Below, piece after piece: positions 2,258 through 41,762 of a DNA stretch of 64,000 nucleotides. Origin of the DNA: an uncultured virus (IMG/VR IMGVR_UViG_3300024268_000045) (lineage: Duplodnaviria; Heunggongvirae; Uroviricota; Caudoviricetes). The stretch lies in the IMG/VR virus record IMGVR_UViG_3300024268_000045; one strand, written 5' to 3'. Made by a program: the position numbers and the translations under genes. Every line of letters begins with the position of its first letter. The first letter of the stretch is position 1. The notes under the pieces are model-generated. The model was not told the DNA's origin. It made no database searches and was given only the letters and a program-made list of their open reading frames with translations.

Positions 2258-3454
2258 CTAAGGCTCGATGGCAACGTGGACTTCCTGCTTCGCAGAACTT
2301 CGTGGTTCTTCACAGGCATTTGTACTTTCGGCTCGTTCCCTGCCTACTACGCCCAGACTAGTAACACCCTTATTCAAGATGTTCAGGGCTGCATTTATAT
2401 CTCTGTCGTGTTCAGAAGCGCAGACAGGACATTTCCACTTTTCAACCCCTAAGACTACATTTGGGTTTACATACCCACAAGTATGACAAGTCTTAGAAGT
2501 ATTCTTTGCTGAAACTTTCACTAAAGTAGTTTTGTAGGCTATCATACTTCTTAGCATACCAAAACCTTGGTCACCAACTGCTCTTCCGTGATGCATTTGT
2601 GCCATAGACTGCAAGTTGATGTCTTCAACAACGACATACTGATACTTTTGTGCCAAGTCGTAAGACAACTTATGCAACCAGTCTTGTCTTTGCCAAGAAA
2701 CCTTTTCGTGAAGTTTAGCAACTTTATATTTTGCTTTGTAATAGTTTTGAGACTGTTCTTGTTTTCCTTTCACAAACTTCTTGCTCAAAAGTTTCTGATA
2801 GTGAGCTAACTGCTTTTCCTTTTCTCTTAGAAAACGAGGACACTTGACTTTCGTGCCATCGCTTAGAGTAAGGAAAACGTCATCCCTACAGTTCCAGTCT
2901 ATTCCTATTGCTTTGCCGTTATTATTCTTGGGTTCATCTTTCTTTTCAACACAAATAGATACAAACCATTTGCCAGTAGCAGTTCTGCTTATAGTTACGT
3001 TCTTTAGCTTTCCTTCACAGAACTGACAATAGTATGCACCTTTTAGAAGTCCAAGTTTTCTTGTTATGAAGAGCTTTCCGTTTACAAACTTTGGCTTTGC
3101 CATAGCAGTGTAGCCAATAGACTCTTTCATATTCTTCTTTGACTTGAACTTTGGTGGCTTTACGAACTTTCCTTTTCTTGTACCATTGCAAGACGCAAAG
3201 AAGTTTCTGAACGCTTGTGTTAGGTCGTTCCAAACGTCTGCCATAGCAGTACTGTCTATTTCTTTACACCATTCAAGTGCTTCTGGCTTATACATTGAAA
3301 ATGTTTCTTTGTATGAAGTAAGCTTGTAAGAATGGTCTGCGTTCTTATTTGCAAGTGAGATGTTCCAATAGAGTCTTTTCAAACCGAGTTCTTTACATAG
3401 AAATGTTTCTTGTCCCTTTGTAGGGAAGATACGATATTTATACGCTTTTAGCAT
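2258..3454 (-). CDS. tnpB: TnpB RNA-guided endonuclease (start re-called at MLKAYKYR)
   Basis: KAYKYRIFP N-terminus; RuvC IGIDW / VVVED / DRDINAA; CxxC..CxxC zinc finger; SD GGAGG before ATG 3454. Confidence 0.93.
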   Translation of the reverse strand: MLKAYKYRIFPTKGQETFLCKELGLKRLYWNISLANKNADHSYKLTSYKETFSMYKPEALEWCKEIDSTAMADVWNDLTQAFRNFFASCNGTRKGKFVKPPKFKSKKNMKESIGYTAMAKPKFVNGKLFITRKLGLLKGAYYCQFCEGKLKNVTISRTATGKWFVSICVEKKDEPKNNNGKAIGIDWNCRDDVFLTLSDGTKVKCPRFLREKEKQLAHYQKLLSKKFVKGKQEQSQNYYKAKYKVAKLHEKVSWQRQDWLHKLSYDLAQKYQYVVVEDINLQSMAQMHHGRAVGDQGFGMLRSMIAYKTTLVKVSAKNTSKTCHTCGYVNPNVVLGVEKWKCPVCASEHDRDINAALNILNKGVTSLGVVGRERAESTNACEEPRSSAKQEVHVAIEP

Positions 3455-3876
3455 CCGTTCCTCCCTTGGTCTTCTAAGTATTTTGCTACTGTATCTGCGG
3501 AAACATTTCCTACTGAACCACAATAGTATCCACGTGTGAAGAGATGATGACTTCTATGGTAAAACTTCTTGAGCCAAGGACCATAGTTATCCCAAGCCCA
3601 GATATTTGCTTCTTGTTTCAGAACTCTTACTATTTGGTCTGGTGACAATGTAGGAATACTCCTTACAAGAATGTGTATATGGTCTGGCTTAGAATAGTCC
3701 AAGTCTATTGTATCTATTGAAAAGTCATAGTTTGAAGAAATGTCAAGAAACTTTTGTTTCAAAGCGTCACCAAAGTCGTGGAAAGAAAATATCTTCCTTC
3801 TATACTTTGCCACGAATATCAAGTGGTACATTATGAGATGCTTTGAATGTGCTGAACTTTCAAGTTTTCTTGCCAT
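3448..3876 (-). CDS. tnpA: Y1 HUH transposase TnpA
   Basis: YHLIFVAKYRR, DHIHIL (HUH), GYYCGSVG and KYLEDQ motifs. Confidence 0.95.
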   Translation of the reverse strand: MARKLESSAHSKHLIMYHLIFVAKYRRKIFSFHDFGDALKQKFLDISSNYDFSIDTIDLDYSKPDHIHILVRSIPTLSPDQIVRVLKQEANIWAWDNYGPWLKKFYHRSHHLFTRGYYCGSVGNVSADTVAKYLEDQGRNGC

Positions 3877-4045
3877 ATCTATTTAGTATTATATTATCTC
3901 AAAAGTTTATACATTTCAAGTTTTCTTTGTATTTTGTATAAACTTTTATATATTTAGTAGCATTGGGCGTAAAGCAAAAGTACGACTTTGTGTTGCTACA
4001 TGCCCCACACTAAAGATGTGGGACTTTTACGCAACACGCTATAAA

Positions 4046-8320: not shown

Positions 8321-11300
8321 TTAAGCTCCTAAACCACTCATAATTTGAGCAAAGTCACCGTTGTTTGGTATAATATCTGTTTGGTCTTCAATGATAGGCC
8401 ACATAGCATAAGCCGAAGCTCCAACCAAAGCAACTGGGTTGTCTTTTGTTGATACACCTTCCATACCAATACTTCCGTCTGTTATCATTTCAAGTGAGAG
8501 TTGAGAACGGTAACCAATTGCTCTCGGTAAAGCACTCTGAACAGGGACAATCCAGTAATCAGCAGATTGCTTTGCTCCACAAAGAAGTGCTTGTGGATCT
8601 TTTTCACCACTTGCAGTCAAATCTTTAAGAGCAGAAGTATTAACGCCACCGTAGTAATTGAAAAGGATTTGATTATCTTCAGCCATCTTACTCCAATCAA
8701 TGTTCCACTTTGCATCATCATAACCGTATGTGATGTATGGACCGTTTGGATTTTGAAGTTTCTTTGCAGCATTATCTTCATCACGGTGCTTTTCGACTGA
8801 ATACAATTTATAAACGCCATCTTCAGGTTTAACTGCATATTTAATCTTACCATTTCTGATTGCCCAACCGTTTTCGTTCCAAGTTTCATCAGCAGCAAGT
8901 TTGTCACCATTTGCTTTATTCTTGAAAGTGCCGTCTCTTTTCTTTACAAAAGATATTGGCTGAACAGGAACTACTCTTTCGTCAGTGCGTTTGAGTGTAC
9001 CGTCTTTAAGCTTTTCTTGACAAGCCAAGTATCTTTCATAAGAAACATATTGAACTTTAACATAAACAGTTTTAATTCTATCAGGCTCAAGTTCTGCATT
9101 TGAACCTGCAGCTTGTTTCTTAAGAACATCTGCTTTCATAGCAAGTGTATTTTGTATTTCATAGAAAGAAACATCAATCTTTGAAGACTTACCTTGGAAT
9201 GCAGTCATATCAATAGAACCTGCAGATGCAACAGCTGAACCTACAACTTGAGGCAACATCTTTTCAAGGTGACGGCACATCCACAAAGTACCGTCTTGCT
9301 TGTTACATCTCTTGTTTATAAAGTATCTTCTTGCTTCATACAAAACATTGAGGTAAGCAAGTAAGAATCTTTCAGGCTCTTCATTTGCTTTCAAATCAAT
9401 AAACTCATTTACTGATTTCCAAGCAGTGTTCATACTGTTATAAGAATATGAACCCATATCCATATAAAGATAAGGCTTAAGTAAACGCTTTACTTTAAGA
9501 ATTGTTTCTTTTCTTTGGTCAAGTACCAATCCTAAGTCATCGTGTAATCTTTGATTTTCTGAAGGACTGTTACAGAACCATTCACGGGCAATTTTTATCC
9601 AAGGATTGTAGCCATAGATGTCTTCACACCAAGATGCTTTGATACAACCTGCAGGAAGACTTCCATCATCACTAAGAGAACTTTGAGAACCTGTCTTTTC
9701 GTTGATAATTATATCGCCATTAGGGTCTGCAATATAATTCTTTTTTGGGTCAGCAAGATAATATGTTCTTGGTGATATAAGCCCAGGTGACTTCGCAGTG
9801 CCTTCAATCATTTTACGAATAAAGTCAAATGAAACAATGTACTGACCGTGTTCATCTTTACCACAAATAAAGTCTTTAGCAAAATTGAGATAACCTTTTT
9901 GTGTTGCGAGAATGTTGTATAAGAATCTTGGAGCAATATCAAAAGAAGTAAAGTAATACTTCAATGCAGACCAAGCATTCTTCAAGTAAACAGTATCTAC
10001 GATGTCGTGATTTTCTGTACACTCAACGCCATTCTTTGTCAATGTTACTAAACGTTTAACTGTTGTGTAAGTTCTGATGTCACTTGCTTTAATCTTAAAT
10101 GAACCTGCTGCTGACTGAACAGTACATCCACGAGATTCAATATGTGTAAGAGCATCAGCAAAACTTTTACCTTCAACATCAATTCCATATTGAAGAACCT
10201 TAAAGTTTACTCTTAAAGGACCGTTTGCATCACCACGATAGAATGTGTTTCTCAATCCCATATTGAGGATCATTGCGTGCCACCAATTAGGAGGTGTTAT
10301 TTCTCTATAAATGGCAAAACCGTTTCCTTCAGGACGATAAGTGTTTCCGTTGATTGTAACTTCGCCTTTATTTATCCATCCTGAAATCTGCCACATTGGG
10401 AATCTTATATTTTTGAAAGCAACATCCATCCAAGAGCTGCCATTCATATCAGCAGCTTTTTGTTTAGAGCAACATTTATTTGAATAAATTTCCGCGCCAT
10501 CATCTGCTTCGAAGTCAAGACCTGGGATGTCACCGATAATACCGACGCCTGAAATACCATTATAAGATGCAATCATACGGTCTGAACCTACAATACCATC
10601 TCTTACAATAGTTGTATCAAATAACGGAATTTCTCTTCCCGATATTCCTGTTATAAGGTCATAAGGAGTCTTTCTTGTTTCACTACAGTTTGTGCCTGTG
10701 TAGCCTGCACCCATTACAGAAAGAATTGAGTTATTTGCTGTTTCAGGTGTTACTTTTCCATCAATAGGAGGTGATGATACACCGATAGACTCTTCACCGT
10801 TATTTACAGAACCATAATTTGTAAATGTCGGCTTTGAAAGTCCTGCCCAGAATCTATCAGTTGAATACAACTTAACAGACATATATGTTTTCCAACCGCA
10901 GTGTCTTTCCCACCAATACTTTCGTTTGTTTGAAGAATATGTTCTTGAGTGCAAACAGAAGTAATAAACAGGCTTTTGATTATGATATATTTCAGCACGG
11001 AATAAACAGTCAGGACGGCCCTGCTCATCTCTTGTTAAGAAGAACGCTTTATTGTGCGCGCCGACCATACCGCCCCACCAGTCAACAATACTTGTCATAA
11101 TATTGTGTTCAGCATTAGTTTGGTAAACATTCAACACTTGCCAAGTAGCTTCATTAAGAATGCTCCATTGAGAATAATTGCCGCCTTGAGGTCCGTCTAC
11201 AAATAATTCATAATCCTCATTAGGTTGCGTTGCAAATAAGTATGCATAGTCTCTTGAGTAACCAAATAATGTTCTGTAAGAATTATACCAAGCGTTCTTA

Positions 11301-14227
11301 AATACGCTGCTTGAGTTGTTAGGCAAGTAAGACTCATAGTGTCTTGTTTGAACAATTCTCCAAGGTGCGTTAGGCTCTGAATGAAGTACATATCTTTTGA
11401 ATGTTGTAAACTTCCATTCATAGTGCCAAGCTCTTTGACAAGGTGCATAATAAGAAACCTTTAAACGCCAACCCCACCAACTGCCTGTCCATTCCCAGTG
11501 ATAGTACCAAGAGTAATTATAATATCTGCTCCAATAGTAATTGTACCAACCGTGATTCCAACAGCCGTACCACCACCAATTTGATGTCAAGCCGAGTTCT
11601 TTATGGAACCATTGCCACCAACCATAGCCTTCATAATGATATGGCTCGCCGTTTGAGTAATGTGATGGACGAACCCATCTCCAATCCCACCAACCCCAGT
11701 ACCAATAATTCCAACCCCAGTGCCATTCAAGCTGTGCATAGAATTCAACATCGCTGTAAACTTTTACACGAAGGTATGCAGGAACTTCACCTGTGCTATG
11801 ATGTCCTTTTTTAAGTCTTGCAAGACCTGCTGACCAAGATTGCTCATAAGCCTGTCTTTCACCATTTGCAACAGCTGAAACATTTGAACACCACTTTTCG
11901 TTTCCTTTGTAATAATAGTTATCTTGACGATTTGGAAGTGATGGCCAAGTAATGTCGCCATCTGCATCGTGATTGAAGTTGTCAGGACATTTATCAATAC
12001 GAGGAACGTTTCTTAAGAAAATGTTGTTTTCCTGATAGTAAGATTGATATGATTTTGGTGAACGGTAATAAGAGTGAGGACCACCATAAAGTGTTGGGTT
12101 GTATTGAGGAACACCAACGCCATTTGAGTTATCTACAAGTTTTTTATCAGTACCTAATAAGTATGCGTGTTCAGCGCCTTCGTCAAGAGCATCATTTGAA
12201 CTTGCTGCCTTTGTTGCTCCAAGAGAGTCCTGAATTGTCCCGTAAGTATTCTTTTGGTCAACACTTCCGTCTCCATTTGCACCTGCTTTTGAAAGTGCAG
12301 AGTTCTTTGAAGAGTCCCTTTTATTGAACATATTTAAGAATGTCAATGCACCTTTGAAAACTGAGCCTGGGCAGTACTTGTTACCACCTGAACCTTCTTC
12401 TGGGTCGTTGAAAGAATAACCTGTGTTCTGACCATTACCTGAAGCATCGTTACCGCCGACTATCATATCATAGCCGTCATAAGGCTCACCGTTTCCGCCG
12501 ACTTGATAATTTATTAACTGAACATCTTCGATTAAGTCTCTTTTATGATAAAGTCCAATACTTGTTTGTAAGAAAAGAATATCAATATCTGAGAAACCAT
12601 CGTCTTCTGATGTGTATAATGCTTTCCAAATTTTACCACCATAGTTCCATTCTTTATAACCTGAAAGAGCAGCGCCTTCAAAGTCTTGGAACATCAATCT
12701 GTTCTGAACAGAGTCACCTCTTATTCTTCCGTGATTGTCTTTTCCTTCCAAGTAATTACGCAAACCTGCTTTTGCAATTCTGTAATAATTAGGTACATAA
12801 GCAGTTGCACCATCAGGAGCAGTAATCTTATCAAGCCATCCTGACAAAGCAGTTGGGTCAGGATATAATGTATGCCATTGTGAATAAGGATATGCATTGA
12901 TTATCCAAGACTTATGATTGTCTCCATATATTTTTGAGATGGCACAGTTGATAACACCCCAAGAGGCAGCTCTATCATCAGGCTGTCCGCTTGTTTCCCA
13001 ACCATAATGATTTGGGTTATCTTTGTCCAAACGGTGAGTCAACATTATGATGTTAGGTAAAGTACTTTCAGTGTTTGTTACCAAACCTTCCTGAAGATAC
13101 ATTGAGATGTCCCACTCTGTAAGATATGTTGAAACGATACCCGACATACCTTCAAGAACCCACTGCAACATATTGATGTTATCGTTAATTGCCTTAAACC
13201 CAGGTGCACGATATGTAAAAGAAGAACGAGCAGCAAGTCCGTTGCTCATATCATAAGTATCATAATATTTATTTTCTTCGTTTTTAATTGCAAGTCGAGT
13301 GTCTTCAGCTTCAGTTACAGTTACCTCTTTTCCATCTTTACGCAATTCTTCATTTTTTGCGTTAAGTTCTTCTTGTCTTTTGTTCTTTGCTTGCTCGAGG
13401 TAATCTTTCATTGTCATTGTACTTACAGAAGATGTCTCACCTTGAGACTTTTTGTAATACAATTTACCATCAGTGCCTCTGTACTTAATACGCTGTCCTG
13501 ATGCGTCAAGAAGATAGCCATTGTTATCAACTTCAAGGCCTGTCTCTTTATCATACTTTTTTGTACTTATACCTTTCCAAGAAGTTGGTTTTATATTTAA
13601 TGGCGCGTAAGGAGGGAACCAAATAACAGAATAATACTCTGACTTATCTTTAAGAGATGTGCCTTCCCATTCCTTATAATTAACTTTTGAATTGAAAAGT
13701 GCACGAGTTCTCAAACGGCCAAATTCATCAGTCTGATTATTTACAGTCCCAGGCTTTGCTTTACCTGTAACTTCACCAAGACGATACTTTGCATCAGTTT
13801 CTCCTACAGGAGATATATACATATCATAAAAGTTTTGAATAACTTGTAAAGCTGCTTGAGTGTTTATTTGATTGTTGAGCTTTTCACCTGCATCATCGCC
13901 AAGAGATCTTAATGTCCAACCTTTGAGGTCAAGGTAAGAAGCAAGTTCTGCACTGTCTTCACCTGCTTTTTGCAAATTCAAAAATTCAGATAAAGTCCAT
14001 TCGTTCTTACCGTTTGCAACCGCACCTGTGCCATTTGTATCAGTAATAGGAACATTTACATAATTTCCATACTGATCTTTTACTGTACTGAAGCGTGGAT
14101 TTTTTCCCGCCGCATCATACATCTTTTTGAAAAAGTTTTCGTTTACTACAGCCTTTTGTTCGATTGCACCTGTGAGAGATGTCCAATCTGTTGTGGTACC
14201 GTCAAAAAAAGTATCTAATCTCATCAA
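8321..14227 (-). CDS. Very large (1968 aa) putative virion/baseplate protein with a Trp/Tyr-rich segment
   Basis: Uninterrupted ORF; late-type motif and SD upstream; G/N/Y/W-rich composition; function inferred only. Confidence 0.55.
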   Translation of the reverse strand: MMRLDTFFDGTTTDWTSLTGAIEQKAVVNENFFKKMYDAAGKNPRFSTVKDQYGNYVNVPITDTNGTGAVANGKNEWTLSEFLNLQKAGEDSAELASYLDLKGWTLRSLGDDAGEKLNNQINTQAALQVIQNFYDMYISPVGETDAKYRLGEVTGKAKPGTVNNQTDEFGRLRTRALFNSKVNYKEWEGTSLKDKSEYYSVIWFPPYAPLNIKPTSWKGISTKKYDKETGLEVDNNGYLLDASGQRIKYRGTDGKLYYKKSQGETSSVSTMTMKDYLEQAKNKRQEELNAKNEELRKDGKEVTVTEAEDTRLAIKNEENKYYDTYDMSNGLAARSSFTYRAPGFKAINDNINMLQWVLEGMSGIVSTYLTEWDISMYLQEGLVTNTESTLPNIIMLTHRLDKDNPNHYGWETSGQPDDRAASWGVINCAISKIYGDNHKSWIINAYPYSQWHTLYPDPTALSGWLDKITAPDGATAYVPNYYRIAKAGLRNYLEGKDNHGRIRGDSVQNRLMFQDFEGAALSGYKEWNYGGKIWKALYTSEDDGFSDIDILFLQTSIGLYHKRDLIEDVQLINYQVGGNGEPYDGYDMIVGGNDASGNGQNTGYSFNDPEEGSGGNKYCPGSVFKGALTFLNMFNKRDSSKNSALSKAGANGDGSVDQKNTYGTIQDSLGATKAASSNDALDEGAEHAYLLGTDKKLVDNSNGVGVPQYNPTLYGGPHSYYRSPKSYQSYYQENNIFLRNVPRIDKCPDNFNHDADGDITWPSLPNRQDNYYYKGNEKWCSNVSAVANGERQAYEQSWSAGLARLKKGHHSTGEVPAYLRVKVYSDVEFYAQLEWHWGWNYWYWGWWDWRWVRPSHYSNGEPYHYEGYGWWQWFHKELGLTSNWWWYGCWNHGWYNYYWSRYYNYSWYYHWEWTGSWWGWRLKVSYYAPCQRAWHYEWKFTTFKRYVLHSEPNAPWRIVQTRHYESYLPNNSSSVFKNAWYNSYRTLFGYSRDYAYLFATQPNEDYELFVDGPQGGNYSQWSILNEATWQVLNVYQTNAEHNIMTSIVDWWGGMVGAHNKAFFLTRDEQGRPDCLFRAEIYHNQKPVYYFCLHSRTYSSNKRKYWWERHCGWKTYMSVKLYSTDRFWAGLSKPTFTNYGSVNNGEESIGVSSPPIDGKVTPETANNSILSVMGAGYTGTNCSETRKTPYDLITGISGREIPLFDTTIVRDGIVGSDRMIASYNGISGVGIIGDIPGLDFEADDGAEIYSNKCCSKQKAADMNGSSWMDVAFKNIRFPMWQISGWINKGEVTINGNTYRPEGNGFAIYREITPPNWWHAMILNMGLRNTFYRGDANGPLRVNFKVLQYGIDVEGKSFADALTHIESRGCTVQSAAGSFKIKASDIRTYTTVKRLVTLTKNGVECTENHDIVDTVYLKNAWSALKYYFTSFDIAPRFLYNILATQKGYLNFAKDFICGKDEHGQYIVSFDFIRKMIEGTAKSPGLISPRTYYLADPKKNYIADPNGDIIINEKTGSQSSLSDDGSLPAGCIKASWCEDIYGYNPWIKIAREWFCNSPSENQRLHDDLGLVLDQRKETILKVKRLLKPYLYMDMGSYSYNSMNTAWKSVNEFIDLKANEEPERFLLAYLNVLYEARRYFINKRCNKQDGTLWMCRHLEKMLPQVVGSAVASAGSIDMTAFQGKSSKIDVSFYEIQNTLAMKADVLKKQAAGSNAELEPDRIKTVYVKVQYVSYERYLACQEKLKDGTLKRTDERVVPVQPISFVKKRDGTFKNKANGDKLAADETWNENGWAIRNGKIKYAVKPEDGVYKLYSVEKHRDEDNAAKKLQNPNGPYITYGYDDAKWNIDWSKMAEDNQILFNYYGGVNTSALKDLTASGEKDPQALLCGAKQSADYWIVPVQSALPRAIGYRSQLSLEMITDGSIGMEGVSTKDNPVALVGASAYAMWPIIEDQTDIIPNNGDFAQIMSGLGA

Positions 14228-23343: not shown

Positions 23344-23817
23344 TTAACTGTCAAAGCCTGTTTCAACTTTTACGAGGTCTTTAGGTGTTTCCTTTTTAAG
23401 TTTTTCAAGCTTTTCTTTGTACATTTCAATCTTTCTTTCACAGTCCTCAATGTCTGCTTTATTTTGAAATGAAAGCGGCTTGAAAGATTCCCAGAGCGCA
23501 CAATTTGATTTATAGCTTTTAGGGTACTTTTTGTAAAAAACATCTTCTGCTTCTTTCTGAGTTTTTGCGAGGATTCTTTCTGTTTCTGTTGATCTTGTTA
23601 CATCGCTTCGCTTATTGTAACGCCCTTGAACTTCTTCGTGTACATACTGAAAATAATATGCATTTAAGAAAAAGTCCTTTTTTGTCAATTCTTCAGCAGC
23701 AGCTTTTATAACAGACTTTTCTTCATCTCTTAATTCAGTATAAGGATGATATGTGTGGTCAAGATGATCTGAATTGTGGCGGGCAACAAAAATCATAATA
23801 CTCTTCACCTGATACAA
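23344..23817 (-). CDS. Hypothetical protein
   Basis: ORF within an operon. Confidence 0.55.
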
Positions 23818-24088
23818 ACTTTTTAGCTCTTCCTTTATAATCTCCTGTGCTTATTATTGCAGCAATCCAACTTATCTGATAAGTCTCTAAATCTTTATTT
23901 GTCAAAACACATACACCATCAGAAGAGTTGACATAAAAAATAAGATATGCATAATTACCAAGCATAAGAGAACGGATTACGATTTCGTTAAGAGGGAGCT
24001 CTTCTAAATCAGGTATCTCTAAAACAAAATCGAAGTAGTGATACTGTTCTTGATGAAATTGATTTTTACCGTTTAAGAATTGAGCCAT
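23759..24088 (-). CDS. Hypothetical protein
   Basis: GGTGG SD-like sequence upstream of ATG. Confidence 0.5.
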
Positions 24089-24100
24089 ATAAAAGCCACC

Positions 24101-24136
24101 ATAAAAAGATAGAGGGTTGACATAACATCAACCCTC
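24101..24136 (-). terminator. Terminator closing the tmRNA / endonuclease / RNA-array region
   Basis: GAGGGTTGA-N7-TCAACCCTC followed by TATCTTTTT on the minus strand. Confidence 0.7.
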
Positions 24137-24515
24137 GGGGATTAGCGCACCGCGCTCTGTTCCTCCACCACTTGCTTTTTAGGAAAGCAAGAAAACCGAG
24201 GGTGTCCCGATTTCTCGAAACAACTTATCCACCACCAATTTTTGAGAAAAATTGGAAAACAACAGTCAAGGAGTAACCATCAACTCTTAACTGTAGTGGG
24301 AGAGTGTAGCCACTCAACCCCACCGCCAGCAGTTTTCTGTCAAAACTGCAAACTCTCAAAGGGATCCTGAACCTTTAAGAAGTTTCACTTTCACTTTCAG
24401 TTGTCCGAACTCAACTAAAGCAGGGAGGGAAACCGAAAGCAATCCCTATGGGGATAATCTCCACCACCAAGTTTCATTGATGTTTTCAGAAGGAAGCTTC
24501 AAAAAACTTGGAAAC
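24137..24515. ncRNA. Unrecognised four-unit structured RNA array (plus strand: CCRCCA-hairpin-AAAC; minus strand: GUUU-hairpin-UGGYGG)
   Basis: CCRCCA at 24165, 24229, 24323 and 24461, each followed directly by an 8-9 bp stem of different sequence and then AAA(A)C; no long ORF. Confidence 0.7.
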
Positions 24516-24522
24516 AAATACC

Positions 24523-25122
24523 TTAAACTTTACATCGTCCTTTGGAAAAACCATCGGGACAAGTTGCGGATTTTACATTTTTGACTCCGTTAGTCCACCA
24601 ATGTGTTCCAAACTGACTGTTTGCAGAACCTTTATGTGATTCTGACATTTTCTTTTTTGACTCTTCAGAAAACTTAAAACCAGTTGTTCCTTTATTGCTA
24701 TGGTGATTTTTATTGCAATAGTACCAACCTTTGTTTCTACCTTCTTTATAAGCCTTTTTCATTGCATCACTCAAATGCTTTTTATATGAGTCAGAACGAT
24801 AATCAATAAATTTTGAAAGATCTCCGCCATCACCGCCACTCGCAAGATTGTACTCTGCTTTGCCAATAAGCTTTTGACAGGCTATCATACATCTTTCAAA
24901 ATGATTTATCTGTTCTTTGGTAAAAAATCCTGAAATAACAATTGTCTTTTCAAAATTTTCCAAACCATATTTTCTTTGAGCCGCATTTATAAGTCTTCCC
25001 GAACCATAATAAATGTCTGTCTCAAAAGTTCTCCCCTTTCTTAGGGTGTGTTGGCCAATGTAAGTTTTTCCATTAACCAAATTTTTAATCTCATAAATAT
25101 ATCTAATTACTTGTGTTTCCAT
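24523..25122 (-). CDS. Free-standing GIY-YIG homing endonuclease with NUMOD3-type motif
   Basis: YIYEIKNLVNGKTYIGQ, YYGSG, YNLASGG, SEESKKKMSESHKG. Confidence 0.9.
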   Translation of the reverse strand: METQVIRYIYEIKNLVNGKTYIGQHTLRKGRTFETDIYYGSGRLINAAQRKYGLENFEKTIVISGFFTKEQINHFERCMIACQKLIGKAEYNLASGGDGGDLSKFIDYRSDSYKKHLSDAMKKAYKEGRNKGWYYCNKNHHSNKGTTGFKFSEESKKKMSESHKGSANSQFGTHWWTNGVKNVKSATCPDGFSKGRCKV

Positions 25123-25147
25123 AAGTAATTAGTATACTTTGGATCTT

Positions 25148-25528
25148 TGGAGCTGGGGAGAATCGAACTCCCGTCCTATGTAACTGACCGCTAACACTTC
25201 TTTACAGGCTTAAACTCCATTATTTTAGGCTTAAGGAACGGAGCAAAAACTATAGTTCGGTTGTTGATACAATCTCAGAAGCCACCAATAAACCGCTTCT
25301 TTTGAAGGTTGCTCTTTTGTGATACAACTCCATTTGGAAAGCAATAGCCGTCTGGGTTGCAACTAAGGGAGTTTATCCCCTTAGGTTAGGCAGCGATTCT
25401 TGCGAATACGCTGTTGCTCTTGCGAGCGAAAACTGAACGTTTTGTTGCAGTTATTTTTGTTCGTATTAAGGTCGACACCTTTACCTGATGTTAGAAACCA
25501 CTTTACAAGTCGAAACCTGTGCAGCCCC
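25148..25528 (-). ncRNA. ssrA: tmRNA; tag (A)ATKRSVFARKSNSVFARIAA at 25386-25448; CCA not encoded
   Basis: 5' GGGGCTG..GGTTTCGAC; 3' GACGGGAGTTCGATTCTCCCCAGCTCCA; G3:U70 acceptor stem; ATAACT-GCA resume context; tag ends AA-stop. Confidence 0.95.
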
Positions 25529-25554
25529 TTATATTTAATATATTAACAAGAACT

Positions 25555-25956
25555 TTAGATTAAGTCCAAAATTCTTCTTAATCTTTCTATGTTCAAGTTT
25601 GAAAATTGCTTAATCGTATCAACATTTTCAATTCCTGTTGAAGCAAGCTTATCAATGTTTTTCAAATCCTCAATCAAGAATCTGATTGCATCTGATACCA
25701 AAGCTTTCATATTTGAAGCAACAGTCAAATTTCCGTCTTCGATGTATGGAGCCAACTTTGCGTAAGAGTTGTTTACAAACTTTACGAAGTCAGCTGACTG
25801 ATGATTGTCGTAAACAGCCTCACTAAACTTTTGGAGAATTGTTCTGCTCTCTAAGTCAGAACCTTCTGTAAGTTTTATATAGTAGTTGAGGTTTAGTCTT
25901 TCACTAAACATAAGAACTTGTAAAACATAATTCTTCAAAAGTTTTGTATGATCCAT
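25555..25956 (-). CDS. Hypothetical protein
   Basis: AGGTGG SD-like sequence upstream. Confidence 0.6.
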   Translation of the reverse strand: MDHTKLLKNYVLQVLMFSERLNLNYYIKLTEGSDLESRTILQKFSEAVYDNHQSADFVKFVNNSYAKLAPYIEDGNLTVASNMKALVSDAIRFLIEDLKNIDKLASTGIENVDTIKQFSNLNIERLRRILDLI

Positions 25957-40249: not shown

Positions 40250-41762
40250 AGAAATTGAGCCAGAAAATTGCCACATCTTTAGTGTGGCAAATGAATGGCT
40301 CTAATATAATCTTTCTAAAGAAAAGATACTAATTATGTAGTAACGAAAAAAGGAAGTACTAGCAATACTTCCCTTCTTCTAAACAAACACAATTAATAAG
40401 GAATTGCGAATGTCTGATAAATTAGTCGTATTTCACGAAGTACAACATAAAGTTCTCAAAATAAGAATCTATCCAAATCAAGACCAGACTATTCTCATCA
40501 ATAAGACATTCGGTAGTTGTCGTAAACTCTATAATGAACATTTGCAAGAAAGAAACGAATTTTACATAGACAACATTCTACCAATTCCTAAAGAAGAAAG
40601 AAAAGCTAAATCAAAAGAAATCTACAAAAACTTCAAGCCTAAAACAGAAAAAGAATGGAAAATCATATATCCTTATATGAAAGAAGTTTCTTCTTGTGCA
40701 TTGCAGCAAGCAAGAATGGATTGTGACCAAGCTTTTGTAAACTTTTTCAAATCAAATAATGGCTCAAGAAAAGGAAAATCTGGATTTCCAAAGTTCAAAT
40801 CAAAACATAATAACAAACAATCTTACCGTGAAGTAATGGTCTCAGACAATAACTTCTACTTTGAAGAACGAAAAGTGAAATTGCCAAAAGTTGGATTAGT
40901 TTCATTCAAAGACAGAAAATTTCCTACTTGGTGGAACAGAAAGACAAAACTATGCTCAATGACTATCGAAAAAAACTGCTCAAATCAATACTTTGTAGCA
41001 GTCTTGTTTGAAGTACAAAAAGCAGTTCACAAAATAGATAACAGAAAAGACTCGATTGGTATGGACTTTAGTCCTGCGGAAATGTACATAAATTCAGATG
41101 GGAAATCTGGAAAAGATTTTGGATATGTAGCACAAAAACAAGCACATCATAAACAATTACGAAAACTTTCAAGACGATTAGCTAAAAAGCAAAAAGGCTC
41201 AAATAATCGAAACAAGGCGAGAATCAAGCTTGCAAGATTAGAAGAGCATATTGTCAATAGCAGAAAAGATTGGATTGAAAAAGAGTCATTACGATTAGTT
41301 CGTTCTTATGAAAAAGTTGTTGTTGAAGATTTGAACTTGAAAGGAATAAGCAAATTCCTAAGAAACGCCAAGAATATGAATGACACTTCTTGGGGAATGT
41401 TTGTTTCAAGACTCCAAGCAAAAGGTGAAGACAATAACTGCAAAGTCATAAAAGCTGACAGGTATTTTCCTTCTAGCAAATTGTGTTCAAAATGTGGTTG
41501 GAAATATGAAAATCTTACTTTGGACATAAGAAAATGGACTTGTTGTAATTGTGGAACACATCACATTCGTGATGTAAATGCCGCAATCAATTTGAAAAAC
41601 TATGTACCGATGGAAGGTCGGGAACTTACGCCTGTGGAGAGTGATAAGGTCAAAAGCTTAGCGTTGCTTGCTTTGCAAGTTGGCTCACTCAATGAAGCAG
41701 GAAGCACTACAGGCGACTCGGTGCAAGAATGTGCTAAGGCTTTAGCTTAGCACAGGCTTCAA
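40250..41762 (+). mobile_element. tnpB-only IS200/IS605-family element (IS1341-like)
   Basis: TTTAT precedes the left end; hairpins GCCACA-TCTTTAG-TGTGGC and TGTGCTAAG-GCTTTAG-CTTAGCACA; ends in TTCAA. Confidence 0.82.
40410..41750 (+). CDS. tnpB: TnpB RNA-guided endonuclease
   Basis: KIRIYPN; RuvC IGMD / VVVED / RDVNAA; zinc finger. Confidence 0.93.
   Translation: MSDKLVVFHEVQHKVLKIRIYPNQDQTILINKTFGSCRKLYNEHLQERNEFYIDNILPIPKEERKAKSKEIYKNFKPKTEKEWKIIYPYMKEVSSCALQQARMDCDQAFVNFFKSNNGSRKGKSGFPKFKSKHNNKQSYREVMVSDNNFYFEERKVKLPKVGLVSFKDRKFPTWWNRKTKLCSMTIEKNCSNQYFVAVLFEVQKAVHKIDNRKDSIGMDFSPAEMYINSDGKSGKDFGYVAQKQAHHKQLRKLSRRLAKKQKGSNNRNKARIKLARLEEHIVNSRKDWIEKESLRLVRSYEKVVVEDLNLKGISKFLRNAKNMNDTSWGMFVSRLQAKGEDNNCKVIKADRYFPSSKLCSKCGWKYENLTLDIRKWTCCNCGTHHIRDVNAAINLKNYVPMEGRELTPVESDKVKSLALLALQVGSLNEAGSTTGDSVQECAKALA

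Follow-up and report, generated by a model that had tools for sequence, protein, structure and literature searches.

Introduction

The passages on wcaG in Weinberg et al. 2010 (PMC2864571) present this RNA motif as a riboswitch candidate of marine metagenomes and T4-like cyanophages that lies 5' of exopolysaccharide or high-light genes, and a supplementary figure of the paper already shows a pseudoknot. Two later cyanophage genome papers, in their passages on the motif, merely repeat this proposal. Here we describe an array of four RNA units on the minus strand of a 64,000-nucleotide (nt) stretch of DNA, referred to as the window, from an uncultured virus of the Caudoviricetes (IMG/VR record IMGVR_UViG_3300024268_000045). 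The array lies near a phage transfer-messenger RNA (tmRNA) gene, and the original prediction, made from the sequence alone, had not placed it in any named family. We find that its unit is the building block of the wcaG RNA motif (RF01761), i.e. the array belongs to the wcaG family or a close variant of it and is a four-module, tmRNA-linked form, not a new RNA class.

The window RNA and the wcaG motif share the module, which consists of GUUUY, a hairpin of 7 base pairs (bp), often CUUGCUU/AAGCAAG, and then a UGGYG tail. In both, two modules with a small hairpin between them make up a full-length match to the model, and the strand logic, the terminal placement and the variable number of modules are common to the two. 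The window RNA differs in that it has four modules and a 98-nt lineage-specific spacer, the tails UGGUGGAG, UGGCGG and UGGUGGAU in place of the canonical UGGUGCGGAU or UGGCGAGCC, and no clear pseudoknot. The host setting is also different, i.e. an animal-gut jumbo-type phage in which the array stands behind a tmRNA and most genes are without a PHROG match, as opposed to a marine cyanophage.

Four other systems invite comparison. T-box antiterminators also carry a single-stranded UGGN beside a helix, and here a terminator and a competing helix enclose the UGGN element. Unlike the T-box, the array has no Stem I with specifier, no T-box sequence and no downstream aminoacyl-tRNA synthetase gene; its modules are multiple and are located at the 3' end of a stable-RNA unit, and the binding of transfer RNA (tRNA) is here a prediction only. 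No match to the T-box riboswitch family (RF00230) was obtained at E up to 10, and the downstream open reading frame (ORF) is without a family. The tRNA cluster of phage T4 (NC_000866) resembles the locus in that tRNA-type genes, a free-standing GIY-YIG gene and small stable RNAs at the 3' end lie on one strand (tRNAs, the GIY-YIG gene segB, tRNA-Arg, rnaD, rnaC). This resemblance is positional only: the unit model R1 described below, run with filters off over T4 68000-76000, has no match in rnaC or rnaD, and its best score (12.3 bits) falls inside segB. Canonical wcaG modules, being compact H-type pseudoknots, resemble the tmRNA pseudoknots PK2-PK4, and the pseudoknot region of one tmRNA, that of contig L056, is taken up by a wcaG motif; the window array, in contrast, is outside a complete tmRNA, and no sequence similarity to the pseudoknots of its own tmRNA was seen. 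Finally, 3'ETS-leuZ of E. coli is a tRNA 3' external transcribed spacer (ETS) that acts as a regulatory RNA. By analogy, the array may likewise be a stable-RNA precursor's trailer, with the potential to persist and to pair with or bind to other RNAs; it has no homology to 3'ETS-leuZ, and its persistence and binding are a proposal only.

Layout of the array

The whole window was scanned on both strands for TTT followed by a hairpin (stem of at least 8 pairs, G·U allowed) and TGGYGG. This unit scan gave exactly four matches, all on the minus strand, while in 100 dinucleotide-preserving shuffles, both strands together, the mean was 0.03 sites and the highest count 2. The array comprises four GUUU–hairpin–UGGYGG units on the minus strand, from 24515 to 24163. 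Their hairpins occupy 24511-24467, 24349-24329, 24255-24235 and 24191-24171, and the TGGYGG tails start at 24466, 24328, 24234 and 24170, which correspond to the plus-strand CCRCCA sites 24461, 24323, 24229 and 24165. In 5' to 3' order of the RNA the elements are as follows; alignment A1 compares the window with the relatives L006 and L157.

24459..24515, minus strand: unit A, a hairpin of 45 nt (stem of 9 bp, apex of 27 nt) flanked by GUUU on its 5' side and by the tail UGGUGGAG (unit scan; R1 27.7 bits)
24353..24450, minus strand: spacer RNA linking units A and B, conserved and almost without variation in three phages (alignment A1)
24323..24352, minus strand: unit B, a hairpin of 21 nt (GCAGUUUU/AAAACUGC) flanked by GUUU on its 5' side and by the tail UGGCGG, the weakest unit (unit scan)
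24264..24322, minus strand: variable insert 3' of unit B, with two extra hairpins in the window, one in L006 and none in L157 (alignment A1 and fold)
24229..24259, minus strand: unit C, a hairpin of 21 nt (CCAAUUUUU/AAAAAUUGG) flanked by GUUUU on its 5' side and by the tail UGGUGG, equivalent to hairpin 1 in the Rfam wcaG match (R1 28.9 bits)
24203..24222, minus strand: middle hairpin UGUUUCGA-GAAA-UCGGGACA, at the position of wcaG P2 (RNAfold on 24222-24100)
24163..24195, minus strand: unit D, a hairpin of 21 nt (CUUGCUUU/AAAGCAAG) flanked by GUUUU on its 5' side and by the tail UGGUGGAG, equivalent to hairpin 2 in the Rfam wcaG match (R1 40.9 bits)
24102..24138, minus strand: intrinsic-terminator-like hairpin 24136-24112 and an interrupted U-run (terminator scan)

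The four positions, the stems and the hairpin lengths (21 nt in three units, 45 nt with an extended apex in unit A) agree with the original prediction, and so does the presence of UGGUGGAG, which is exactly complementary to CUCCACCA, in units A and D. The 5' flank is of variable length, being GUUU or GUUUU. The array was also correctly located between the stop of a GIY-YIG gene (ORF 24523-25122) and a terminator-like hairpin with a T-run (24136-24102). The region from the stop of that 199-amino acid (aa) ORF to the start of the next, 109-aa ORF is non-coding, and the flanking genes and the tmRNA are all on the minus strand. Minimum free energy (MFE) folds of the whole array are good on both strands, and their long-range pairs are not trustworthy.

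Identity with the wcaG motif

The Rfam wcaG model matches 24263-24156 on the minus strand over all of its 98 positions with 41.5 bits, i.e. it covers units C and D. The corresponding E-values are 7.2e-6 for a search space of 1.8 kilobases (kb), 1.7e-6 for 436 nt and 1.8e-7 for the whole phage record G001, and the homologous array of L006 reaches 42.3 bits. A second, insignificant match (14.3 bits) is on unit B. In the cmscan alignment the model consensus reads UUU-hairpin-UGGUGC ... GUUUC-hairpin-GUGGCG. Since it holds two such hairpins, the unit of the original prediction is half of a wcaG motif. GUUUY before the hairpin and a single-stranded UGGYG after it are present in all four units. The small hairpin between units C and D is placed by the Rfam alignment as a 29-nt insert at P2, and its sequence is unlike the consensus GGGG/CCCC. 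The setting is not the one described for wcaG (T4-like cyanophages or marine, 5' of exopolysaccharide or high-light genes): the array is in a gut/faecal phage, and its neighbours are the tmRNA, an endonuclease gene and the 109-aa ORF.

The assignment was repeated with a model of the single unit, R1, which was built from alignment A2, i.e. 90 units drawn randomly from 117 non-redundant ones, with the window lineage excluded. Over the 188,745 bases of G001, R1 found unit D (40.9 bits, E 2.9e-10), unit C (28.9 bits, E 2.4e-6) and unit A (27.7 bits, E 6.2e-6); the next match had 12.5 bits (E 0.56), and unit B was not reported there. With filters off and over 1.8 kb the four best matches are the four units, with unit B at 11.7 bits (E 0.01), and the best plus-strand match is a hairpin alone with 7.5 bits.

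Strand, covariation and pseudoknot

For a test of the strand the unit scan was repeated with a rule that tolerates G·U and A·C pairs equally. The 138 unique units contained 45 G·U pairs and a single A·C pair, and 35 of the G·U pairs were the conserved U·G at stem position 7. The transcribed strand is the minus strand, as is seen from this count, from the orientation of the Rfam match, from the orientation of the genes and from the terminator.

A check for covariation had been suggested together with the array. In the units of other phages six of the seven stem pairs vary on both sides, and none of 500 shuffles reached the observed score (A2, 90 units). As the A2 units were selected for pairing, it is only the variety of pair types that counts as evidence here. 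The pseudoknot is well supported in the family: among 47 units whose hairpins have 23 nt, 172 of 188 cells are paired, as compared with 131.5 on average and 145 at most in 2000 shuffles. An extension of the stem by pairing of the flanks (GUUU with UGGY) was considered and dropped, because G(-4) is used by the pseudoknot and the four-U units break the register.

The wcaG-type unit in other phages

A stem-specific pattern, TTTCTTGCTT-N5-11-AAGCAAGTGGYG, occurs in at least 119 viral contigs and 13 genome contigs, and the surveys that follow draw on the matches listed. Among these there were 94 non-redundant loci with 215 units (L001-L005, which are of the window lineage, were left out). One unit was found at 12 loci, two at 46, three at 33 and four at 3. 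The commonest tails were UGGUGCGGAU (67 units), UGGCGAGCCU (41), UGGCGUGCAU (36) and UGGUGGAGUC (35), the last being the tail type of window units A and D. Carriers are not confined to cyanophages; they include the gut jumbo-type phage, a Mycobacterium contig and contigs of spirochaete and Bacteroidota metagenome-assembled genomes (MAGs).

wcaG-type modules are generally linked to phage tRNA and tmRNA genes and to transcript 3' ends. A tRNA gene is found within 600 nt of the unit at 19 of 80 loci, and all 31 such genes have the orientation of the UUU-hairpin-UGG strand. In the five large records the unit is without exception either inside a tRNA cluster (G003, G005, G006) or within about 1 kb of the 3' end of one (G002, G004), while the tRNA-proximal share of each record, by arithmetic on coordinates, is roughly 3-15%. 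Single units occur between tRNA-Pro and tRNA-His (L046) and 4-7 nt 3' of tRNA-Gln (L073). In L024 a tmRNA at 254-597 is followed after 4 nt by a unit match that begins at 601. In L056 (400-888, minus strand) a 489-nt phage tmRNA with intact tRNA-like ends and an encoded CCA has a wcaG match of 48 bits, i.e. above the cut-off, in its pseudoknot region; the tmRNAs of both L056 and L024 were missed by ARAGORN. The Mycobacterium contig L165 has the order tRNA-Trp, tmRNA, unit and then four tRNAs. In cyanophage S-SM2 the motif is about 750 nt after a cluster of eight tRNAs, and in S-IOM18 it ends 29 nt before tRNA-Pro. In other words, the linkage to ssrA and tRNA genes, one of the checks proposed with the original prediction, is met with in many phages, where the units lie in or beside such genes and are always co-oriented with them.

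Placement at 3' ends was surveyed as well. Among the matches listed, 88 non-redundant arrays had at least 100 nt of downstream sequence, and in 58 of them a terminator-like hairpin with a T-run started within 130 nt of the last unit; in 54 of these 58 it started at 16-34 nt, and the distance in the window is 34 nt. A further 11 arrays had a co-oriented tRNA 37-79 nt downstream, and 19 had neither (simple scan). In several of 60 canonical sequences the motif begins, as judged by eye, at the stop codon of the upstream ORF.

Several side observations were made on these loci. In canonical ones (e.g. L018, L013) the terminator loop often carries TTGACA or TTGCAT, with TATAAT after the T-run, which by eye looks like a terminator overlapping with a sigma-70-type promoter. 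Cyanophage loci such as L015, L027 and L079 have an extra type of module 5' of the canonical wcaG, which consists of a hairpin, UAAAAG, a few bases and CCCUGGUCGGGA; the tail of this module is an 8-nt complement of the tRNA-Pro 3' end, and tRNA-Pro genes are often nearby. In S-SM2 the annotated 'hypothetical protein' SSM2_190 (L181 2449-2643) overlies a wcaG match, and small annotated ORFs also overlap tRNA genes there; these are probably spurious calls. Mycobacterium phage Myrna was considered as a relative of L165 and rejected, as the sole similarity is an unannotated stretch that by eye looks like HNH-like coding sequence, and no unit was found in the Myrna tRNA array.

The tmRNA, the endonuclease gene and the relatives of the array

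Upstream of the array on the same strand are two genes.

25147..25528, minus strand: phage tmRNA gene with the tag ATKRSVFARKSNSVFARIAA*, 3' CCA not encoded (ARAGORN; Rfam RF00023, 88.2 bits, model positions 1-374)
24523..25122, minus strand: 199-aa GIY-YIG/NUMOD3 homing-endonuclease ORF (Pfam SegE_GIY-YIG 25.8 bits, cut-off 25; NUMOD3 24.3 bits, cut-off 20.4)

The array is not a part of the tmRNA itself, since positions 1-374 of RF00023 are accounted for by 25528-25147 alone. It starts 630 nt 3' of the tmRNA in the window and a few nt 3' of it in L006. In the latter the tmRNA is at 2229-2614 (with its end at 2612-2614), the hairpin of unit A begins at 2625, and the gap of about 5-10 nt contains no ORF. 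From this comparison the 600-nt GIY-YIG/NUMOD3 ORF of the window is an insertion: the adjacency of tmRNA and array is ancestral, and the endonuclease gene has since been inserted between the two. L157, a 306-kb MAG contig, has an endonuclease gene that is 82% identical (160/194 residues), a similar tmRNA tag and units B-D, and lacks unit A. We note that L157, which is binned as a Candidatus Fimenecus MAG and has the tmRNA, endonuclease and array cassette of the window, is probably a jumbo-phage genome that was binned with a bacterial MAG.

The array sequence is extremely conserved. Between the window and L006 the array is identical at 306/316 positions (97%), the tmRNA at 259/360 (72%) and the DNA of the downstream ORF at 230/311 (74%); the corresponding values for L157 are 287/296 (97%), 364/378 (96%) and 225/316 (71%). 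The variation within the array is limited to the apex of unit A, the stretch 3' of the tail of unit B and a few single bases (alignment A1). The unit A apex is shorter in L006, where the tail of unit B is UGGUCGGG. The 98-nt spacer is lineage-specific: a pattern derived from it matches only four viral contigs, all of the same lineage, hence there is no material for a covariation analysis of the spacer or of the switch helix described below. A BLASTN search of GenBank phages with 23700-25600 gave no match. The window stretch is found in faecal and ruminant-gut runs.

The terminator, a candidate switch and RNA-library contigs

CCCUCGG (24202-24196), just 5' of unit D, is complementary to CCGAGGG (24138-24132), which overlaps the 5' arm of the terminator, and a helix between the two would enclose unit D and its tail. 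On the full sequence the terminator fold has -45.4 kcal/mol and the fold with the enforced competing helix -38.3 kcal/mol; before the 3' arm of the terminator is made, the 7-bp competing helix is the MFE structure (-37.3 kcal/mol). From these calculated energies the helix is a candidate antiterminator. All three relatives carry it unchanged, which leaves no covariation as evidence for it.

Contigs from four metatranscriptome runs of three studies cover the array and the tmRNA. One of them, X19 (414 nt), covers 24129-24526 and continues with 17 letters that read as the 3' end of a relative's tmRNA, which shows that tmRNA and array are contiguous in an RNA library. Together with the gap of about 5-10 nt in L006 this bears out the expectation that the array, as a minus-strand RNA, belongs with the tmRNA. 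The contig ends in two studies, 24129 and 24136, are not at one place. The endonuclease ORF and the flanking ORFs are not covered by the RNA-library contigs, and no conclusion on relative abundance is drawn from this. As a separate observation, in the contig X21 (615 nt) position 24111, the base after the terminator stem, is fused without a gap to 25528, where the tmRNA begins. This junction could come from a relative with the array 5' of the tmRNA, a tandem copy, a circular or ligated RNA, or a chimera.

Proposed explanation

We favour the explanation, with a probability of roughly 0.6, that 24515-24102 on the minus strand is a structured non-coding RNA of about 410 nt, the 3' trailer of a tmRNA transcription unit that ends at the intrinsic terminator. 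The RNA would be built of four wcaG-type modules and lineage-specific spacers, each module consisting of a 7-9 bp hairpin with G-UUU(U) before it and a single-stranded UGGYG tail after it. The trailer may be cut from the CCA-less tmRNA precursor and persist as a stable RNA, and the repeated UGGYG tails may act as docking sites for a partner that is common to very different hosts. As to the role, we put the chances somewhat below even that it is a stable-RNA operon's trailer which binds a tRNA-processing factor and guides processing or protects it; that it works by pairing directly with NCCA ends is unlikely, and that it is a metabolite switch more unlikely again.

A number of points weigh against this explanation. 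The wcaG score of the window, 41.5 bits, is 0.5 bit below the curated gathering cut-off of 42, and the match is therefore absent from the gathering mode, where Rfam lists the tmRNA only. Unit B is weak. The wcaG pseudoknot is not evident in the window units: the pairing of CYRG just 5' of UUU with the loop of the 3' hairpin is not found, and there are 0-4 weak pairs at most. The scan pattern prescribes tail positions 1, 2, 3 and 5 (U, G, G and G), hence their invariance in our unit sets adds no evidence, and the conservation of these positions rests on the Rfam consensus and the figure in Weinberg et al. 2010. The 80 loci share one stem sequence (CUUGCUU/AAGCAAG) and many are from related cyanophages, i.e. 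they are not independent. The RNA-library contigs show presence only, not transcription, strand or ends, and DNA carry-over is possible. The high identity of the array could instead reflect a recent horizontal transfer of the cassette, and a mere role in processing or stability does not account for the higher conservation of the array relative to the tmRNA. A full-text literature search found no functional study or experiment for any wcaG RNA.

Complementarity to CCA ends

The alternative that survives best, the capture idea of the original prediction, is a T-box-like captor or sensor, in which the hairpin and its UGGN tail would pair with the NCCA of an uncharged tRNA or tmRNA, with stacking on the hairpin; we consider it possible, though unlikely. 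In the window, CUCCACCA bound to the tail UGGUGGAG of unit D would free CCCUCGG for the antiterminator helix and allow read-through into the downstream genes, and in general the array would shield or titrate CCA ends. Several of the above results are in accordance with such a function, i.e. the exact complementarity of units A and D to CUCCACCA, the unpaired state of the tails in the consensus structure, the tight and co-directional linkage of the family to tRNA and tmRNA genes, and the competing 7-bp helix, which overlaps the terminator and is the MFE structure until the terminator is complete. G001, estimated to be 65% complete, has no tRNA gene and a tmRNA gene without an encoded CCA, and it encodes a protein closest to CCA-adding enzymes. 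This 496-aa protein with a PolyA_pol head and HD domain (G001:C1 ~2402-3892 = L187:454-1944, minus strand, outside the window) has CCA tRNA nucleotidyltransferase as its best NCBIfam match, below the cut-off. The gene was tried as a general companion of wcaG and rejected: it is present in only one of five other large wcaG-bearing records, which speaks against a general link.

The complementarity was then examined with the mature 3' ends of phage tRNAs, which could be derived for 99 of 102 unique genes (three were dropped for poor acceptor pairing); the H1 and H2 tails were compared with phage tRNAs only. UGGUGGAG pairs over 8 nt with all three tRNA-Ala, UGGUCGGG over 8 nt with six tRNA-Pro and UGGUGCGGA over 9 nt with one tRNA-Met, which is in favour of capture. 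The two commonest tails of 3' hairpins, UGGCGAGCCU and UGGCGUGCAU (77/215 units), on the other hand, pair over 5-6 nt at most with any of the 99. Within one and the same phage the Ala-type tail alone reaches 8 nt, in G002 only; in G004 its match is 6 nt long, and for the H1 and H2 tails the length is 5-6 nt. U73 is present in 36 of the 99 tRNAs, but no more than 3 of 149 units have A at tail position 4. Among five genomes with Treponema-type units (tail UGGUGGGGCUAA), one has a tRNA-like 3' end ...GCCCCA and four are without a fitting end. Extended complementarity is thus limited to Ala/tmRNA, Pro and one Met end. Moreover, pairing past NCCA requires melting of the acceptor stem, the extended tails have local partners too, e.g. 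P2, and canonical wcaG terminators have, as judged by eye, no conserved competitor helix. The invariance of the switch helix in the three relatives and the missing T-box match also count against capture.

A more general form of this alternative, which we hold to be rather improbable, sees in the wcaG-type modules minimal T-box-like docking sites for the universal NCCA end, which viruses would place after their tRNA and tmRNA genes so that uncharged or damaged ends are captured, sensed or shielded. The hairpin would then be a stacking platform beside the UGGN tail, and in cyanophages the pseudoknot would pull the 5' strand away. Unit D would couple the CUCCACCA end of tmRNA or tRNA-Ala to terminator read-through, and the phage enzyme of the CCA-adding or repair type would be part of the same system of 3'-end maintenance or counter-defence.

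Other explanations

The published proposal for wcaG, i.e. a metabolite riboswitch or cis-regulatory leader of the downstream gene, seems to us quite improbable for this array. On account of the complex conserved structure of wcaG, Weinberg et al. 2010 (PMC2864571) consider a cis-regulatory role probable, and that of a switch probable too, and in the window a terminator stands between the array and the next ORF, with an alternative helix in addition. The placement of the family is that of a 3' end rather than a leader: a terminator-like site follows 16-34 nt past the last unit in 54 of 88 arrays; in the canonical sequences it has a promoter-like TATAAT directly after it, and the motif follows a tRNA or begins where an upstream ORF stops. 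Downstream of the family lie unrelated genes (sugar epimerases, hli, tRNAs, the 109-aa ORF), single units stand between tRNA genes, one motif is inside a tmRNA, and the copy number varies from 1 to 4.

It is very improbable that the array is a DNA-level element, i.e. a homing-endonuclease target, a recombination repeat or a REP-like palindrome, and not an RNA. An endonuclease gene does adjoin the array, the hairpins are also palindromes in DNA, and L157 lacks unit A next to the endonuclease gene. The strand asymmetry, i.e. G·U and not A·C, is a property of RNA, however, and the stems covary while the unpaired flanks stay fixed; in addition, there is no endonuclease gene at the L006 array or at most members of the family, and RNA-library contigs lie on the array.

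The last alternative, put forward by the original prediction, is that the plus strand gives tRNA-Ala-like mini- or microhelix decoys ending in ACCA, for which GGGGA-UAA-UCUCC-ACCA can be drawn at 24449-24465 and the plus strand folds well (-133.9 kcal/mol, z -7.3), and it fails with hardly any probability left to it, because 45 G·U pairs against one A·C pair make the minus strand the transcribed one, R1 and Rfam match on the minus strand only (7.5 bits being the best of R1 on the plus strand), the flanking genes and the terminator are all minus, the 31 neighbouring tRNA genes elsewhere are all on the minus-type strand, and the microhelix has just 5 pairs and a 3-nt loop.

Neighbouring genes and other features of the phage record

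The next gene after the array is the short ORF mentioned above.

23759..24088, minus strand: 109-aa ORF whose start is 24 nt past the terminator stem (ORF list)

It has no Pfam or PHROG match. Relatives of the ORF are present on four viral contigs, three of them identical and that of L006 58% identical, and a further relative in L157 is 46% identical. No match to SmpB was found in the phage record G001.

The remaining observations concern genes away from the array. The ORF next to the PolyA_pol-type gene (L187:2315-3319) is a GGDEF diguanylate cyclase. Two ORFs of the window, 2258-3523 (minus strand) and 40404-41750 (plus strand), both match the PHROG transposase phrog_506 (E 4.5e-92 and 4.2e-94) and look like two copies of an insertion sequence. 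A 1968-aa ORF at 8321-14227 (minus strand) is without a Pfam or PHROG match, and as most large ORFs of the window are likewise without one, the phage lineage is poorly known.

Implications for the wcaG family

wcaG has been an orphan 'riboswitch candidate' since 2010, and the present locus ties the family to tRNA-type genes rather than to sugar metabolism. The tie of the family to tRNA/tmRNA transcription units in very different phages appears to be new, as it was not found in the published wcaG literature that was searched. The picture of the motif is changed accordingly: it is modular, with 1 to 4 units, it extends beyond cyanophages, its tie is to tRNA and tmRNA genes and to the 3' ends of transcripts, and it is able to sit inside a tmRNA. 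Annotators are given a reason to stop calling spurious ORFs over wcaG, as in gene 190 of S-SM2. The capture of CCA ends is a minority hypothesis that can be tested, and the locus makes the role of wcaG approachable via tRNA/tmRNA maturation, 3'-end binding and terminator read-through.

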